DNA of 64,000 nt from the NCBI RefSeq assembly GCF_009931435.1, contig NZ_CP043414.1. One strand, written 5' to 3'. The position numbers and the translations under genes are program-made. Every line of letters starts with the position of its first letter. Positions within the stretch are counted from its first letter, which is position 1. This DNA is from Escherichia coli. GTDB taxonomy: Bacteria; Pseudomonadota; Gammaproteobacteria; Enterobacterales; Enterobacteriaceae. Positions 2,177-44,558 of this stretch are shown piece by piece. The notes under the pieces were generated by a model. The model was not told the origin of the DNA. It did not search any database and saw nothing but the letters and a program-made list of their open reading frames with translations.

Positions 2177-2707
2177 TTAGCTCATCGCTTCGAGAACCAC
2201 ACCGTCTTGTTCCATCTGGTCGAGACGGGAGAGCAATTTGCGGGTGATTTGCTCGAGCTGATCTTTTTCTGTTGTGCTGAGCGCGGACCAGAGTTGATGC
2301 AGGCAATTATGCTGCGGTGGTAAAACCTCGCGCAAAAACTCGTGACCTTTTTCCGTTAATTGCAGATGCAGGCAGCGGCGATCGTTATCGCTTTCACGAC
2401 GTTCGATCCAACCGCGTTTTTCCAGTTCATCGGCAATACGCGTCGCGTTGGTACGGGATGATCCAAGAGCACAACTCAATTCAGAAGGCTGAATACTGTG
2501 GTTTTCCTGAGACTCCAGCGTAATCAACGCCATAAACAACGTCTCGTTAATCCCCTGAGCCTTCAGCATTTTATTGCGGTTCTCCAGCAGCTTGCTTTGC
2601 ATATGCATGCAAAGACGGGTCAGAAGGATCTCCTGATAAGGAAAATCTTCGTGGCGGCTGGCGCGAAATTTTAGCATTTGTTCAATGGGCGTAAACGAAC
2701 TATCCAT
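2177..2707 (-). CDS. mprA: MarR-family repressor MprA/EmrR
   Basis: 176 aa [17 protein letters not shown]..., upstream of emrA in same orientation. Confidence 0.92.
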
Positions 2708-2797
2708 TTGGGTATGACCTCATTAATTTCAGCCGATATAGTAACGACAGTGACAAATAAAGTAAATGTATTGTTTTAGAAAAATGATTCTTGTGGG

Positions 2798-3133
2798 TTA
2801 TATAATCGCCATCACTTTCCAGGCGAGCCCATAGGCCAGCGCACTAAGCAGTGTTGGGATGATAATGCTGCGTGTTTTATAGAAACTGGCACCCAGTACC
2901 GCGAAGCCGACCAGAGTGGGCACGAAACGGCGTGTATCGTGCATCACTTCTGGTGCGGTAGAGACAACCAGCAGAGCGCATATCGAGGCGATGCCAATGG
3001 TGTCGAGCAAAATACCTACCGCGCCACGTTTGGTTGGGCGGGCATTACCCACACGCAGGCGCAGCGGCAAATAGCGGAAGCAATAATTCGCCGCGCCAAC
3101 CAGTAACCCAAGCAGCAGAACCTCATAGCTCAT
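2798..3133 (-). CDS. ygaH: L-valine exporter small subunit YgaH (AzlD family)
   Basis: 111 aa hydrophobic ORF overlapping the end of ygaZ; conserved ygaZH pair. Confidence 0.8.
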
Positions 3134-3860
3134 CGGGCGCTCCTTGCCAGAATGCCTGGATTAACGCAGTGAGGCAGCCACAGACAATGCCTGCCAGAAT
3201 GGCGACGGGAATAGAAAATAGCGTTATGCCTGCAAGGGCACCAACTAACGCTGCGGTAACGCAAAGAGATTGTTTGCGCTGGAAAGAGGCGAGCAGGAAA
3301 CTCATAAAGAGTGCCGGAAGCATAAAACCTAATGCTGCTTCAACGGCGGGATATCCTTGCAGCAAGCCGCTGCCGGAGAATGCCCCTATTACCGTACCAA
3401 ATACCCACGATGACCATGAACTGAAGGCAATGCCGATCATCCAGTTCTCGCTCCAGCGGCGATTATTGCGTACCAGTTTTGCGGTTGCGGCGGCAAAAAC
3501 CTCATCCGTCAGGCCAAACGCCCACAGGGCAGTTTTCGATTTTTGCAGACGCTGAATAATACGGCTACGCAGTGACGGGCCATACAAAACATGGCGAACA
3601 TCCATTGCCATGACGGTCAGTGCAGCAACCCACAAACTACTCCCGGCTGCCAGCATCGCGGTAATGACGAACTGGCTCGCGCCTGCATAAATGATGCAGG
3701 AGAAAAAAACGCTTTCGAGAGGAGAGAATCCCAGACGGGTCGCATTCAGACCGAACGCAAAGGCCACCGGAATATAACTAATAACAATCGGTAAACTGTC
3801 TTTGCATCCTTCCATGAAGGTCGCCGAACCAGGAGCAGGCTGTGGAGTAGGGCTTTCCAT
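3123..3860 (-). CDS. ygaZ: L-valine exporter subunit YgaZ (AzlC family)
   Basis: 245 aa membrane ORF upstream of ygaH. Confidence 0.8.
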
Positions 3861-3983
3861 AGAGTGTACGCTTAACGATTGTTAATATTATAAATAGACT
3901 GAATGAATATCTTAACCTTATCAGACTGATGGGCTTCTTAACACCCTTATAAGTGTAAAGCCACGAAAACGGTTGCTGATTGC

Positions 3984-5168
3984 TTAAATTGCGGCTTCCT
4001 GACGATGAAAACCTCGCCACCAGACCAGTAAGTTAACCAGGGCAATCGTCGCGCCAGCCAGACAAACGCCAGCCCAACCGCCATGTTGCCAGGCTGAGGC
4101 TGAAATTAGCGAACCGGCGGCACCGCCAATAAAGTAGCTGGTCATGTAACCTGCAGTCAGGCGATTACGCGCATCAGGGTGTATTCGATAAATTACCGTC
4201 TGGTTAGTGATATGCACGCCCTGCACGGTGAGATCCAGCACCAGGATGCCGATAATCAAGGCCAGTACGGAAGTGTGACCAAACCAGATCGCCAGCCATG
4301 AAAGTAACAGCAGCAGCAGACCGAAAGTTGTGGTGTGGTGCGATTTGCCCTTATCGGCAAAACCGCCCGCCGGACGAGCGCCCAACGCTCCGGCAGCTCC
4401 CGCGAGTCCAAACAGACCAATTACGCCATCGCTGTAATTAAAAGGCGGAGCGGCGAGCAAAAAGGCCATTGAGGTCCAGAGAATGCTGAAGTTGGCAAAG
4501 GTCAGGCAGCCCAGCAACGCGCGGGTGCGCAGAATTTTATCGCTGATAAACATGCTGAAAACGGAACCAAGCAACTGTGGGTAGTTGAGGTGGGTTTCTG
4601 ATTTCATTTGTGGCAGACCACGCCATAATGCCAGCGCCATCAGTGCCATTAACACCGAGGCAACCCAAAAGACGGTGCGCCAGCCGCCGAGGTTTGCCAG
4701 CAACCCGGCAACGGTTCGTGCCAGCAAGATCCCCAACAGCAGCCCGCTCATAATGGTGCCGACCACTTTGCCGCGTTTGTCCGGTGAAGCCAGCGTCGCT
4801 GCCAGCGGAACCAGAATTTGTGCCACGACCGAGAATAAACCGGTTAATGCCGTACCGAGGATCATCATCGCCAGCGACTGACTGCTGGCGGTAATCAACA
4901 TACCGCCCGCTGCCAGTAAGGTCATCGAGACAATCAGGCGGCGGCGTTCAAACACATCACCGAGGGGAACAAGAAACAGCAGACCTGCGGCATAGCCCAA
5001 CTGCGCGGCGGTAACAATAAAGCCCGCCGAACTGGCGGAAAGGGAAAAGTTACGCGCGATGGTGTCGAGTAATGGCTGGGCGTAATAGTTACTGGCTACC
5101 GCCAGACCGGTGGCGATAGACATCAGCACGATCAGTGCCGGGCTAAGCTCATGATTAGGTTTAGTCAT
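3984..5168 (-). CDS. ygaY: MFS transporter YgaY (apparently intact here)
   Basis: 394 aa uninterrupted ORF with 12-TM style hydrophobic profile; position between ygaZ and proX. Confidence 0.75.
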   Translation of the reverse strand: MTKPNHELSPALIVLMSIATGLAVASNYYAQPLLDTIARNFSLSASSAGFIVTAAQLGYAAGLLFLVPLGDVFERRRLIVSMTLLAAGGMLITASSQSLAMMILGTALTGLFSVVAQILVPLAATLASPDKRGKVVGTIMSGLLLGILLARTVAGLLANLGGWRTVFWVASVLMALMALALWRGLPQMKSETHLNYPQLLGSVFSMFISDKILRTRALLGCLTFANFSILWTSMAFLLAAPPFNYSDGVIGLFGLAGAAGALGARPAGGFADKGKSHHTTTFGLLLLLLSWLAIWFGHTSVLALIIGILVLDLTVQGVHITNQTVIYRIHPDARNRLTAGYMTSYFIGGAAGSLISASAWQHGGWAGVCLAGATIALVNLLVWWRGFHRQEAAI

Positions 5169-5270
5169 TATTTTTGTTCATCAGGTGATGATTAAGCTGG
5201 AAATCAATAATAGCGGATGTTGATGAATATGGGATGAAAGATAGATTGTTGAAATGTGCGGTGTGGTTTG

Positions 5271-5352
5271 TAGGCATGATAAGACGCGGCCGCATCGCAT
5301 CAGGCATTGTGTACAGAGTGGCGGATGAGGCAAAAGCGCCTTATCCGCCCGA
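5271..5352. repeat. REP-like palindromic elements downstream of proX
   Basis: gtaggcatgataagacgcggccgcatcgcatcaggc and ggcggatgaggcaaaagcgccttatccgcc resemble REP units. Confidence 0.5.
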
Positions 5353-5359
5353 ATAAAAA

Positions 5360-6352
5360 TTACTTCTGCGCTGCCAGCGCCTCATTCACCCAGCCATCGA
5401 ACTGCTGCTGGTGGGCTTTGATCCAGCCATCAACGTGTCCCTGAATATCGCCTTCTGAGGCTTTGCCGTCATGCATGATGGCGTTCTGGGCGTTAATGTC
5501 TGCCACCGGCAACTGCATAATGGCAAACAGTTTCGCTGCTGCCGGGTTTTTCTCGGCCCAGGCTTTGTTGGCAACGATATGCATGGTACTGACCGGGAAG
5601 CCGTAATTCGCGCCATTCGGCAGTTTGGTATCGGCATTTTTATCGCCCGGCAGTGCGGAGAACGGCACCTGCAACCAGACCACATCTTTCCCCGGTTTCA
5701 GTTCGTTACTCACCCAGTACGGCGTCCAGGTGTAGTAAAACACCGGCTTACCCTCTTTGTAACGACTGATGGTGTCAGCCATCATCGCTGCGTAGTTCCC
5801 CTGATTATGGGTTACGGTATTGGTCAGTCCATACGCGGCAAGCTGGTGGTTGATCGCACCTTCGCAGCCCCAGCCTGGGTTACAGCCGGTTAAATCCGCT
5901 TTACCGTCGCCGTTGGTATCGAACAGTTTGGCGATCTTCGGATCTTTCAGTTGCGCGATGTTGGTGATTTTGTACTGGTCGGCGGTTTTCTTATCGATCA
6001 GGTAACCCTGTGCCGCGCCGTTAACGAATACCCCTTCACGATAAAATTTCTTATCGCCACCGGCAGCTTCGTACATGTTGTCATGCAGCGGCGTCCAGTT
6101 CACGGCGGTGAAGGTTGCATCGCCGGAAGCAAGTGAGGTGTAGCCAACGTTGTAATCCACTTCGCTGGGTTTATTGACGGTATAACCTAATTTCTCCAGT
6201 GCACGACTGACCAGCAGCGTCTGGAAGGTTTCTTCAGTGATGGTGCTCTGAACTGGATTAACAGTAATACCTTTGCCCGGCAGATCGGCAGCAAAAGTTT
6301 GTGTAGAGATAAGCGTGGCAAACGCTGTCGCAAAAAGTACGCTATGTCGCAT
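5360..6352 (-). CDS. proX: Glycine betaine/proline ABC transporter periplasmic binding protein ProX
   Basis: ORF 5360..6394; start trimmed to [14 protein letters not shown] signal peptide. Confidence 0.9.
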
Positions 6353-6409
6353 TGTTATTCCTTTTTTTGGCAGGGTGAAAATGCCCGGCGTCACCGGGCA
6401 AGTGCAGAG

Positions 6410-7474
6410 TTACTTAATGAATGGGCGGGTCAGCAGACCGACAGGGCCAGTGGTGTACCAGCGACGGTTGCCGCGACTGCGTGAGTCGCGCCCAACGGCC
6501 TGCGTCAGGCGGTCGAGGATAATGGCGAGGATCACAATCCCGACGCCGCCAACGGTGGCAAGCCCCATATCCAGACGACCGATACCGCGAAGTACCATCT
6601 GACCCAGCCCGCCGACGGCAATCATCGAGGCGATGACCACCATAGAAAGGGCCAGCATCAGCGTCTGGTTAACGCCCGCCATTATGGTCGGCATCGCCAG
6701 CGGTAACTGAACTTTGAACAGCATTTGACGCGGGCTGGCACCGAATGAGCGCGAGGCTTCAATTAAATCCGCCGGAACCTGATTAATACCAAGAATCGTC
6801 AGACGGATAATCGGCGGCAGAGCAAAGATTATAGTCACCACTACGCCCGGCACGTTGCCGATACCAAACAGCATGACGATTGGCACCAGATAAACAAACG
6901 CTGGCGTGGTCTGCATGGCATCAAGCAGTGGACGAATAATTTTCGCCGCTCGCGGACTTCTCGCCAGCCAGATCCCCAACGGCAAACCTATGACGATACA
7001 GAACAGCAGGGCGGTTAACACCAGCGCCAGGGTAACCATGGCCTGCGACCAGGCACCGATTGCGCCGATGGCAATCAGCGAAACCAGAGTCGCCACGCCC
7101 ATTCCGACCCCGGAAATCTGCCAGGCGATGAGAGCGAAAACGATAATCGCCACCGGCGCGGGCATACCCAGCAGCAATTGCTGGAAACCGTTGAGGATGT
7201 AATCAACCGGAACGCGCACGCCCTGAAAGACGGGACGAAAATGGGTAACGACCCAGTCGATCCCTTCAGTGACCCAACTGTCGAGCGGGATTAGCGTTTT
7301 ATGGAACGGATCGAGAATATTAAAATGCTCGACGTTTGGCGCAGGCGTACTGGTCAGCCAGTCAGCGCCACCGCCGTCAGTCGGTGCAGTCGCCGGTGTA
7401 CCCCAGGCGTCTGCAGATTGTGCAGCACTGTCCGCCGCTGGCGTGGTATCCCACGGATTATTTTGATCAGCCAT
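6410..7474 (-). CDS. proW: Glycine betaine/proline ABC transporter permease ProW
   Basis: 354 aa, [19 protein letters not shown]... Confidence 0.92.
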
Positions 7475-40897: not shown

Positions 40898-41227
40898 CTA
40901 CTAAAGATATAGTTTTCCTATACGTTTAAGAGCAAATGCTATATGTCAGATGGGGAATGCTATGTTTAAACATAGGATCTGAATTAAAAGTTAAAAGGAA
41001 AATAGATCTAACTATGTTCGAATACATTCGCTTATTACCTCATAGTAGTAAAATAAAATACAAAATGTCAGTTTTAGGGCGTAGCCGTGCGTAAGCATAG
41101 AGATAAATATCTTTTCAAAAAGAAGTTTAAAAATAATAAGTAAAAGCATGAAGAAAACACAGATATATTTGATTTTTACGCTTACGATAGAGTATTAAGC
41201 AGTAATAAATAAAAAAGGGAAAACACA

Positions 41228-41497
41228 ATGAACAATATCAAAATGATTACGCTCTTCTATCCCCATGAAAAAACACCATTTATGATCTGTATTGTAAACA
41301 AAGTAGAAGATACAGAACTTGGATTGAAATTAACTCTTGAAAACGGCAACAACATTTGTGTCAATAATTATAGTCATTATCTGTTATCAGAGTCTGTAAA
41401 TCGTTGTAATAAAGAAAGGTTAAAGAGTATTTATATTCGCTTGGTTTCAGAACTCACGCAGATGAGTGAAGAAACTATAAAATCGCAGATGTTTTAA
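41228..41497 (+). CDS. Hypothetical protein
   Basis: 89 aa ORF, first of four co-oriented genes. Confidence 0.45.
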   Translation: MNNIKMITLFYPHEKTPFMICIVNKVEDTELGLKLTLENGNNICVNNYSHYLLSESVNRCNKERLKSIYIRLVSELTQMSEETIKSQMF

Positions 41498-41579
41498 AAG
41501 TTATATTGAACATAATAAATATTTTTGATATTACGGTCAGTTGCATGGTATTAAATAAAAGAATAACAGGAAAAATATC

Positions 41580-41984
41580 ATGCGAAAAATAAAAACAAAA
41601 ATCTACTTGCCTACAGCTTTAACAGGAAACATGGATAAACACTATATCCCTGTTCTAGAGGATTTAAGAAAAGCGATATACAGCGACAGAATGTTATCAA
41701 GGCTTGCAGATAACGGTAGTATTGTTATCCATAGTTCAGTTGGGTATCCGGTTGCTAAATACAAAAACACGGGGATTAGCATAGGTATAGAACCATTGAA
41801 TCCAATGATAAGACAAGATCTGACTCTTGGATATATCGTGGTCGTCAGAAACGGGAAATCATCACAGGAGATTAATGGTTTACTTAACAGGTCATTGCCA
41901 AAAGCAATAAGCACTTTTAAGGATCACATCAATGAATATGAAGCAGTAAAAAGTAAAATGCGACAACAAACTATGATCTGGTAA
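41580..41984 (+). CDS. Hypothetical protein
   Basis: 134 aa ORF, 82 bp after preceding gene. Confidence 0.5.
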   Translation: MRKIKTKIYLPTALTGNMDKHYIPVLEDLRKAIYSDRMLSRLADNGSIVIHSSVGYPVAKYKNTGISIGIEPLNPMIRQDLTLGYIVVVRNGKSSQEINGLLNRSLPKAISTFKDHINEYEAVKSKMRQQTMIW

Positions 41985-42021
41985 AATATTTAATCTGATA
42001 ACTTCAGGAGGAGGATGAGCG

Positions 42022-43005
42022 ATGGAAGGTAAGTTAATTTTTTGTTCCGATGCAATACTACGGTTTCAGTCCGATTACGATGAAACCGCTGCCGTTCCAT
42101 TGCTATCCATCCAGAACGTCATAGCCGATACCGATCCGTTCTTTCTTCTCCGTTTCTTCCACCATACCGTTCTGATTGAAGAAGGAACAACGCTGGCAAG
42201 TATCTTTCTGGCAATAGAACCGTGGAAGGCTTTGTTAGCGGCTTATCTGGACAGAGATGTTGGTGCTTATATAGATGAGGTAAGAAAACCGTCCGGGCCA
42301 ACGACATGGGATATTGAATGGATTGGGATTGATCGTCGTAGCATGGTTTACCGCGCTTATAAACGTCAGGAGATGCAGGATGGAGAGGATTTTTCTGACT
42401 ATTTAAACCGGGAACGCGTTCTGACCGATGAATTTGAAATTGAAAGTGGCTGTGAGGCTTCTGGCTACATTAAAGGTGATAAAGAACGCTGGAGCATCAG
42501 TGGTGATGTTCACGAGATAAAGAATCTGCCTGTAATCCTCTATAGCAAACAGACATTGATGACTTCACCGAAAGACGGTTTGCTGAAGAAAAACGTATCG
42601 GGTGTGAAGAGTTCCAAGCACAGTTGCTTCGTTTATGGCGATACCTCGTTTTCATTGAGAGAGGTTATGGAAGCCATCTACATTAGCGGGCTGTTCTTCT
42701 ATGCGCCAAGAGACGCCGCCAGTAGTCTTGATGCGCTGAAAGCGAGTGTGGCTGGACTGGAAGACGAACTGACCGAGGTGCCTGAAACAGAATCGGATAA
42801 TAATGAAACAGATGAAGAACCTACCATCGTCGTAGCCGACGGTGCTTTTGATTCGCTCGCTGCTCACATGGAGTCTGAAAAAGCGGAGTGGCAATACATT
42901 AAGAAGTTGTGCCAGCAAGATAGCGAGCTGCCCATACGTATTGGTAGTATCAGAATAGCTGAGCCTGCGGAGCTATGTATTGGCGGGAAAATCTTACATG
43001 AATAG
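42022..43005 (+). CDS. Hypothetical protein with acidic C-terminal segment
   Basis: 327 aa ORF, 37 bp after preceding gene; locally higher GC than neighbours. Confidence 0.55.
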   Translation: MEGKLIFCSDAILRFQSDYDETAAVPLLSIQNVIADTDPFFLLRFFHHTVLIEEGTTLASIFLAIEPWKALLAAYLDRDVGAYIDEVRKPSGPTTWDIEWIGIDRRSMVYRAYKRQEMQDGEDFSDYLNRERVLTDEFEIESGCEASGYIKGDKERWSISGDVHEIKNLPVILYSKQTLMTSPKDGLLKKNVSGVKSSKHSCFVYGDTSFSLREVMEAIYISGLFFYAPRDAASSLDALKASVAGLEDELTEVPETESDNNETDEEPTIVVADGAFDSLAAHMESEKAEWQYIKKLCQQDSELPIRIGSIRIAEPAELCIGGKILHE

Positions 43006-43171
43006 GTACAGGCAACAGTTAGCATTGTGGTGAAAGGATATGGTGTATGTTTGCTCACTTTTTTGTGTTATCTCCTGATCAACCCTATGTCGACTATGGT
43101 AAAATTCCCAACTTTAACACCAACGTAGCAAGTGTTTTATGAGCGCGTAGTCAACCAGTAAGGACATTGAA

Positions 43172-44089
43172 TTGAACATTAACGCAACACCAGTATTAAT
43201 TACACTTGTCTACGAAGCGCTTTTAAGATCCTTTTGGCGTAAACCCGCACTCAAAAAATTTTTGTTATCGTCGCATATTTCTGAAAGCTTCATTTCAACT
43301 TGGAGAGAAGATGAATCAAAAAGAAATTTTTTAGATCGTTTGTTCCCTAAATTACAAAGTAGTGCAAAAGGAAAAAATGTTATCTGCCATATGGCAGTTA
43401 ATCTTTCTGAACAGACTTCTTTTCCTGATTTAAAAGGCTGGGAAGATTCTCTACAAATGATTCAATCTGCAACTGATGCCATAAAAGATTTAAAAAACTA
43501 TATAACAAAACAAAATGAAGAACATCAGACTGAAAAAGAAAAACAAGAGTTCAGAGCACGAGCAGAAAAAGAGAGAACTGAAATAAAACGCTCTGAGACG
43601 GATTTGATGAAATTAAAGAATGAATTTGAGTGTTTGCATAATGAAATAGGAACTCAAAATGGTGGCTACGCATTTGAAAAGTGGTTTTTTAAACTTGTAG
43701 ACTACTGTGAAATTGTCTGTAAAAAACCATATAAAACTAATGGTAGGCAAGTAGATGGAGCCATAACTATTGAAGGCACTACGTACCTTGTTGAATTAAA
43801 ATTTCAGAAAACACAGGCTGACGCCATCGACATCGACTCATTAAAAGCTAAAGTGAGTAAAATGGCTGATAACACGATGGCTGTAATGATTTCTGTATCA
43901 GGTTATTCCTCTGTTGCCATAACTGAATCATCGGGTAGTCGAACCCCTTTATTATTATTAGATTATAGCCATTTATATTTATTCTTGAGTGGTGGAATGA
44001 GATTTGATGAAATAATTACACGGATAAGACGCCATTCTTCACAAACAGGAGAATCTTACCTATCTGTAAATTCATTTGGTGGATTTTAA
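43172..44089 (+). CDS. Protein with C-terminal PD-(D/E)xK (Mrr-like) nuclease motif
   Basis: 305 aa; GGYAFEKWFFKLVDYCEIV...VDGAITIEGTTYLVELKFQK fits E...D...(E)xK restriction-endonuclease-fold signature; N-terminal region with coiled-coil-like stretch. Confidence 0.55.
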   Translation: MNINATPVLITLVYEALLRSFWRKPALKKFLLSSHISESFISTWREDESKRNFLDRLFPKLQSSAKGKNVICHMAVNLSEQTSFPDLKGWEDSLQMIQSATDAIKDLKNYITKQNEEHQTEKEKQEFRARAEKERTEIKRSETDLMKLKNEFECLHNEIGTQNGGYAFEKWFFKLVDYCEIVCKKPYKTNGRQVDGAITIEGTTYLVELKFQKTQADAIDIDSLKAKVSKMADNTMAVMISVSGYSSVAITESSGSRTPLLLLDYSHLYLFLSGGMRFDEIITRIRRHSSQTGESYLSVNSFGGF

Positions 44090-44149
44090 ATAAACAATAA
44101 TGCTGTATGAAGTAATCTCAGCATTATTGTTTCCAATAATTAATGTTGG

Positions 44150-44527
44150 TTAATCCATCAAGCCGCGTGAAGTCTTACTTGCAGTATGACGAAAATCATA
44201 ACGTTCCACAACATCACCCTTAAACCAGATATCCAGTGATTTAATATGTGCTGTGCTGCTATTGGTCAACAGAGCAAGGCCCGGTATGTAGTTAGATAGC
44301 TGGCTTTCTCCCGTCATACTTGAGTAGTTCCACATCTCCTGTCCATCATTCGTAGCGCGTGTCTGAGGCTCTCCAAAGGCAGCAAGAATTTCTTGTTGGG
44401 TTGTTTTTCCATTGACGATTTTAACTTTAACCGTCTGATGATTTTCATCAGTTAGGGATTTATTACCATGAACGGTACAGCCACTAAGTGGTAATATGAT
44501 AAAAATAGCAAATAACAATTTTTTCAT
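44150..44527 (-). CDS. Lipoprotein, BamE/OmlA-like pattern
   Basis: ORF 44150..44569; start at MKKLLFAIFIILPLSGC (lipobox); G.T.QQ...G.P pattern resembling SmpA/OmlA fold. Confidence 0.55.
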   Translation of the reverse strand: MKKLLFAIFIILPLSGCTVHGNKSLTDENHQTVKVKIVNGKTTQQEILAAFGEPQTRATNDGQEMWNYSSMTGESQLSNYIPGLALLTNSSTAHIKSLDIWFKGDVVERYDFRHTASKTSRGLMD

Positions 44528-44558
44528 TTTAGTTCCATAAATAGATGATAGATGAGAC

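Follow-up and report, generated by a model that had tools for sequence, protein, structure and literature searches.

YnfM of Escherichia coli is a CCCP-sensitive glutarate exporter (PMC12622518) that has also been described as an exporter of cyanidin-3-glucoside, and TCDB places YgaY (P76628) beside it, as entry 2.A.1.36.3 of the YnfM (acriflavin-sensitivity) family (quoted in PMC5417439). In K-12, the ygaY gene has been used as a pseudogene control deletion (Price et al.) and, in metabolic engineering, as a neutral site for integration, and it has been termed cryptic (Rashid et al. 2023). The MG1655 gene (b2681, once split as b2680/b2681) carries a pseudogene annotation and measures 1178 bp, 7 bp less than the gene described here, with which it shares locus and gene order and 96.9% identity over a 1.7-kb region.

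The window, by which we mean the whole 64,000-nt stretch of E. coli DNA that was analysed, carries at this locus a single ORF of 394 aa on the minus strand, which starts at the ATG at 5168-5166 and ends at the TAA at 3986-3984 (Table 1). The ORF lies between proX and ygaZ-ygaH-emrR and thus occupies the ygaY position, and the window order emrR/mprA, ygaH, ygaZ, ygaY, proX and proW is the MG1655 order proW-proX-ygaY-ygaZ-ygaH-mprA in reverse. The product matches the Pfam MFS_1 profile (PF07690) at E=6.8e-42, with 144 bits against a gathering score of 33.4 bits, which is far beyond chance, and a hydropathy scan predicts 12 hydrophobic segments arranged as six, a central loop (residues 185-220) and six. 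The helix 2-3 loop, PLGDVFERRRL, resembles motif A (GxLaDrxGrkxxl) in keeping the Asp and the Arg-Arg pair and aligns with PLSDAIGRKPV of YnfM, while its internal Gly is replaced by Glu, and a strict regular expression for the motif gave no match. An earlier note on this DNA had described a continuous 394-aa MFS transporter ORF at this place and had stated that ygaY is interrupted in K-12; the ORF listing and the MFS_1 profile bear out the first point, with the strand now assigned, and the MG1655 annotation bears out the second, so that K-12 ygaY is not an intact and identical copy of the window gene; nor does the window ORF contain an internal stop. We consider it very likely that ygaY of the window is the intact ancestral form, that K-12 became the exception by losing one repeat unit, and that the protein is probably an exporter.

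Table 1. Features of the ygaY locus and of the genomic island in the window.
Feature	Position	Strand	Basis or remark
emrR/mprA	2177-2707
ygaH	2798-3133
ygaZ	3123-3860	-	AzlC family, L-valine exporter subunit; downstream neighbour
ygaY-ygaZ spacer	3861-3983	-	GC 0.36
Promoter-like site ahead of ygaZ	3915 to 3887	-	TTAAGA-17-TATAAT; consensus match only
ygaY, intact MFS transporter ORF	3984-5168	-	1185 bp; ORF listing, PF07690, 12 hydrophobic segments
Site homologous to K-12 lesion	4899-4916	-	ORF nt 253-270, codons 85-90, predicted helix 3
AT-rich region 5' of ygaY	5169-5260	-	92 bp, GC 0.34
REP/BIME-type palindromic element	5273-5350	-	One unit, in the proX-ygaY spacer; Rfam naRNA4 RF02564
proX	5360-6352	-	Upstream neighbour, last gene of proVWX; annotated 993 bp mapped by offset from a relative
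MobA/MobL relaxase	47283-48764	-	Island
PilS-type type IV pilin	50107-50670	+	Island
Shufflon-type PilV-like protein	50723-52186	+	Island
LmuB, Lamassu defence pair	52247-54019	-	Island; E=2e-224
LmuA, Lamassu defence pair	53991-55079	-	Island; E=2e-137
P4-type tyrosine integrase	55625-56854	-	Island
ssrA (tmRNA gene)	57019-57381	-	Beside the island

The closest complete genome differs from the window by 8 nt within ygaY, and RefSeq annotates the same 1185-bp CDS there as an intact "MFS transporter"; the exact YgaY protein of the window is itself on record in public assemblies. A draft assembly (GCA_016664965.1, contig DADCLT010000018.1) matches window positions 2484-6668 at 4184 of 4185 nt, and this near-identity means that the lineage of the window is already in public data, though absent from the set of complete genomes.

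In BLASTP, YgaY aligns with E. coli YnfM over its full length (E=1e-20) at 26% identity over 409 columns, a level that fixes neither the substrate nor the direction of transport, and this full-length similarity together with the TCDB listing makes it a member of the YnfM family, TC 2.A.1.36. The NCBIfam search with YgaY returned no equivalog at or above its cut-off, with 62.5 of 401 bits for SotB (PRK03545), 50.4 of 303 for Bcr/CflA, 51.8 of 400 for Cmx/CmrA and 37.5 of 479 for EmrD. Sequence hits in the PDB were weak as well, to GlcP over the N-terminal half only and to SotB over the full length, and neither search gave a family-level functional assignment. YgaY is most likely an exporter of a small organic solute driven by the proton motive force, a reading that draws on export by its paralogue YnfM and on the weaker full-length similarity to DHA1-type exporters. 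It may instead be an importer of the solute:H+ symporter kind, which we hold to be a real but distinctly smaller possibility, for which the top partial NCBIfam match speaks, an aromatic acid/H+ symporter subfamily aligned to the N-terminal half (E=9.6e-22, 77 against 418 bits), together with the best PDB match, the glucose/H+ symporter GlcP, likewise confined to that half. The matches that run the full length of the protein, by contrast, are to the exporters YnfM, SotB/PRK03545, Cmx/CmrA, Bcr/CflA and EmrD, all below the family cut-offs, and the neighbouring ygaZH and emrRAB likewise encode exporters. A more specific proposal, which we regard as speculative and would not expect to hold in full, is that YgaY is a selectively maintained exporter, little studied since K-12 lacks it, and that its substrate is perhaps dicarboxylate-like or a stress-related metabolite. 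The fixed position of ygaY, with the osmoprotectant importer proVWX on one side and the valine exporter ygaZH on the other, would be in loose agreement with such a role.

Escherichia, Shigella and Citrobacter all have ygaY, which encodes an MFS secondary transporter, among their conserved core genes. Orthologues of 394 aa with 93-99% identity are found in E. fergusonii, E. albertii, E. marmotae, Shigella and Citrobacter, and the order proX-ygaY-azlC-azlD is kept in the genomes that carry them. The window gene differs from that of E. marmotae by 73 synonymous and 9 nonsynonymous codons and from that of Citrobacter by 161 and 28, so that synonymous changes far outnumber nonsynonymous ones in each comparison, that with K-12 (35 against 2) included, which argues that ygaY is maintained by selection. 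As judged from these codon counts, ygaY is under strong purifying selection and the intact form is both ancestral and normal. The window allele is separated from that of E. fergusonii by 54 differences (95.4% identity), and other E. coli alleles by 68-85, a closeness that could stem from an old recombination at the locus. At the head of the list of homologues stands a 596-aa protein from a metagenome, which matches 99% of the YgaY query at 73% identity and points to a mis-called ORF or to a fusion that includes ygaY.

In the case of the flanking DNA, a simple scan of the AT-rich stretch upstream of ygaY (5169-5260) turned up no sigma-70 consensus promoter, and the gene has a weak Shine-Dalgarno sequence; its expression may thus be low or conditional. 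The proX-ygaY spacer is 191 bp long in both the window and K-12 and 290, 291 or 452 bp in other strains, the added length coming from a further repeat unit or from unrelated inserted sequence, and the palindromic element within it matches naRNA4 (RF02564) at 58.2 bits, just under the gathering score of 59.5 bits. In K-12, the 5' region of ygaY is one partner in a bridge, mediated by H-NS, to the proU downstream regulatory element, and read-through from proVWX is kept out of ygaY by StpA (Rashid et al. 2023). The gene could accordingly be intact and yet cryptic here too, silenced by H-NS/StpA or barely translated and of no phenotypic consequence. The upstream GC content of 0.34, the coding strand's lack of a sigma-70 consensus and the weak Shine-Dalgarno sequence favour this, as do the H-NS signal, seen in some K-12 experiments, and the bridge at ygaY in K-12 and the rise in ygaY transcripts that loss of StpA brings after osmotic shock (Rashid et al. 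2023). The excess of synonymous over nonsynonymous change across Escherichia and Citrobacter and the strictly conserved length of 394 aa are, however, unexpected in a gene that is never expressed, and we judge lasting crypticity to be improbable. Conditional silencing, on the other hand, is compatible with the preferred explanation of an intact, selected transporter gene.

The alignment with K-12 that the earlier note had called for shows a net loss of 7 nt in K-12, with 37 substitutions and one 7-nt gap between the window ORF and the K-12 gene (mafft). Of the substitutions, 35 are synonymous and two nonsynonymous (V72M and I394N), and the frame-repaired K-12 protein differs from that of the window by V72M, G88C and I394N. 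Translation in K-12 ends after 88 aa, the frame being shifted inside predicted helix 3. The nature of the lesion becomes plain in NCTC86, a phylogroup A strain with an intact ygaY that is only 1 other nt apart from K-12: it reads CTGG CGGCATG CGGCATG TTG where K-12 reads CTGG CGGCATG TTG, and this perfect tandem pair against the single unit indicates that K-12 lost one 7-nt unit. When CGGCATG was put back computationally into the K-12 sequence, a full ORF without internal stop resulted, 1 nt from NCTC86, which marks K-12 ygaY as a single-event pseudogene. At the same site the window reads CTGG CAGCGGG CGGTATG TTG and contains no tandem repeat; the K-12-type pseudogene allele, with its single CGGCATG at codons 86-88, is absent from it, the corresponding sequence being CTGGCAGCGGGCGGTATG, in frame. 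Because the window allele differs at the site, mafft placed the gap in the window-versus-K-12 alignment as GGCAGCG, and the tandem-repeat lesion was masked there.

The K-12 allele derives from the Gly88Cys class, whose codons 86-90 make up a perfect (CGGCATG)x2 pair, and the unit was probably lost through replication slippage in what appears to be a recent event. We also considered a quasi-palindrome template switch, since the deleted bases lie within an imperfect inverted repeat. DNA folding gave -11.6 kcal/mol for the window allele and -9.9 kcal/mol with K-12-like flanks before the deletion and -8.3 kcal/mol after it; the 16-nt arms remain imperfect once the bases are gone, and since the tandem-repeat explanation is also simpler, the template switch was rejected.

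The distribution of alleles was surveyed in 5426 complete E. coli genomes by near-exact-match queries of 30-70 nt around the K-12 site. Among the sampled alleles the steps run from type W through types L and N to K-12. Type W (CAGCGGG CGGTATG, without the repeat) is the allele of the window, O157:H7, O111:H8 and E. fergusonii, and with 2140 genomes it is the commonest of those counted. Type L (GCG GCA GGC GGC; 1656 genomes) carries synonymous changes only, type N (789 genomes) adds the change of GGC to TGC that produces Gly88Cys and makes the repeat perfect, and the K-12 junction, which is type N minus one unit, occurs in 353 genomes. The counts for W, L and N come from exact-match queries with a 30-mer, which replaced a megablast class at 90.9% identity (1078 genomes) that mixes W and N types, as megablast splits gaps free of cost; about 470 of the 5426 genomes have other variants of the 30-mer and fall outside the four counted alleles. 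LLAAGGML is the peptide encoded at the lesion site in E. marmotae, E. albertii and Citrobacter alike, so that Gly88 is ancestral. All 60 genomes in an evenly spaced sample of the 353 with the K-12 allele are K-12 laboratory derivatives, among them MG1655, W3110-type strains, BW25113, C600, MC4100, JM109, TG1, J53, S17-1, EPI300 and RP437. The broken allele was thus found only in K-12 laboratory derivatives among the genomes sampled, K-12 being the notable genome.

This distribution bears on whether the single unit of K-12 could be the older state and type N a revertant, which would have arisen when an ancient 7-bp deletion was later offset by a 7-bp tandem duplication that restored the frame. 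Type N does differ from type W by a cluster of four substitutions that make a perfect tandem 7-mer, which has the look of a duplication scar. The common intermediate L, however, has three synonymous changes without G88C, so that single substitutions suffice; all outgroups encode Gly88; and the single unit was found only in the sampled K-12 laboratory lineage, 1 nt from NCTC86. We therefore regard this order of events as highly improbable, and an ancient deletion with a compensating duplication is not needed as the origin of G88C given the abundant intermediate allele and the outgroup states. That the K-12 difference is a sequencing or annotation artefact has a negligible probability in view of 353 independently assembled genomes with an identical 70-nt junction and of C600, where ygaY is annotated as "MFS transporter, frameshifted" and is identical to MG1655 across the whole gene.

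The loss of one unit in K-12 looks like a one-off event. A three-unit (CGGCATG) allele was found in none of the 5426 complete genomes, which argues that the repeat is not an active site of phase variation; a contingency locus was rejected on this ground and also because the single unit is limited to the sampled K-12 laboratory lineage and the window has no repeat. Two independent lesions came to light by chance, in S115 and PCP06021, and an intact 1185-bp ORF is present in all 11 of the other E. coli genomes that were inspected over the full length of the gene. Strain S115 (NZ_CP158441.1) has a separate 19-bp deletion at ORF nt 252-270, which overlaps exactly with the site of the K-12 lesion, and its gene is annotated as "frameshifted"; with S115 and K-12 as the only two events, a local deletion hotspot, a coincidence and an assembly error cannot be told apart. 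In PCP06021 (NZ_CM129877.1) a deletion spans most of ygaY, the whole of ygaZ and the beginning of ygaH, and a remnant of 159 bp is left of ygaY.

Elsewhere in the window, a genomic island at about 41000-56900 is integrated beside ssrA, and no contiguous counterpart of it was found in any of the 5426 complete E. coli genomes. Its gene content (Table 1) makes it look like a mobilisable element that carries an anti-phage system. To the right of the island, the core genes recN, nadK, grpE and yfjD (55700-64000) have 95.5-95.7% identity to the best complete E. coli genomes, and window positions 1-25000 have 98.6% identity to the nearest genome; either this strain stands rather far from every complete RefSeq E. 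coli genome, or its right flank is recombinant.

That ygaY is intact here and a pseudogene in K-12 is already known in substance, because the K-12 pseudogene is annotated and RefSeq regularly lists intact orthologues as "MFS transporter", and it represents ordinary strain-level variation. The present analysis makes minor additions, namely that K-12 has lost one unit of a 7-nt tandem pair, that the repeat exists only in the Gly88Cys class, that the broken allele was seen only in K-12 laboratory derivatives among the genomes sampled, and that the window carries the commonest, repeat-free allele. The earlier description of a minor strain-level pseudogene polymorphism was fair as such, and its emphasis needs to be turned around, the state of the window being the usual one and K-12 the outlier. 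One consequence is that functional genomics in K-12 is blind to the function of ygaY, though it is intact in the sampled strains and sister genera and evolves there under purifying selection. If the speculative proposal of a selectively maintained, little-studied exporter holds, a transport phenotype would exist in wild E. coli that is beyond the reach of K-12 screens such as the Keio collection and fitness assays. Re-insertion of CGGCATG would repair K-12 ygaY and open the way to work on the protein in K-12 itself.

In comparison with known systems, close equivalents of the window gene are intact RefSeq orthologues such as WP_039021929.1 (strain 2017-02-2CC) and WP_000165699.1 (several strains), which are encoded by the same 1185-bp CDS in the same position and are 2-4 aa apart from the window protein through allelic substitutions only. 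The sugar efflux transporter SotB/YdeA (PDB 6KKI) and the Bcr/CflA, Cmx/CmrA and EmrD transporters have a weak similarity that extends over YgaY residues 11-390, with scores so far below the cut-offs that YgaY is not a member of any of these families. In the case of YnfM (b1596, TC 2.A.1.36.1), a proton-coupled exporter of glutarate/dicarboxylate, the relationship is that of a paralogue and not an orthologue, and YnfM has the divergent LysR-type regulator gene ynfL alongside, whereas YgaY is without such a neighbour. YnfM is nevertheless also a 12-helix MFS protein that aligns with YgaY from end to end, and the two have the loop motif PL(G/S)D..(E/G)R(R/K) in common.
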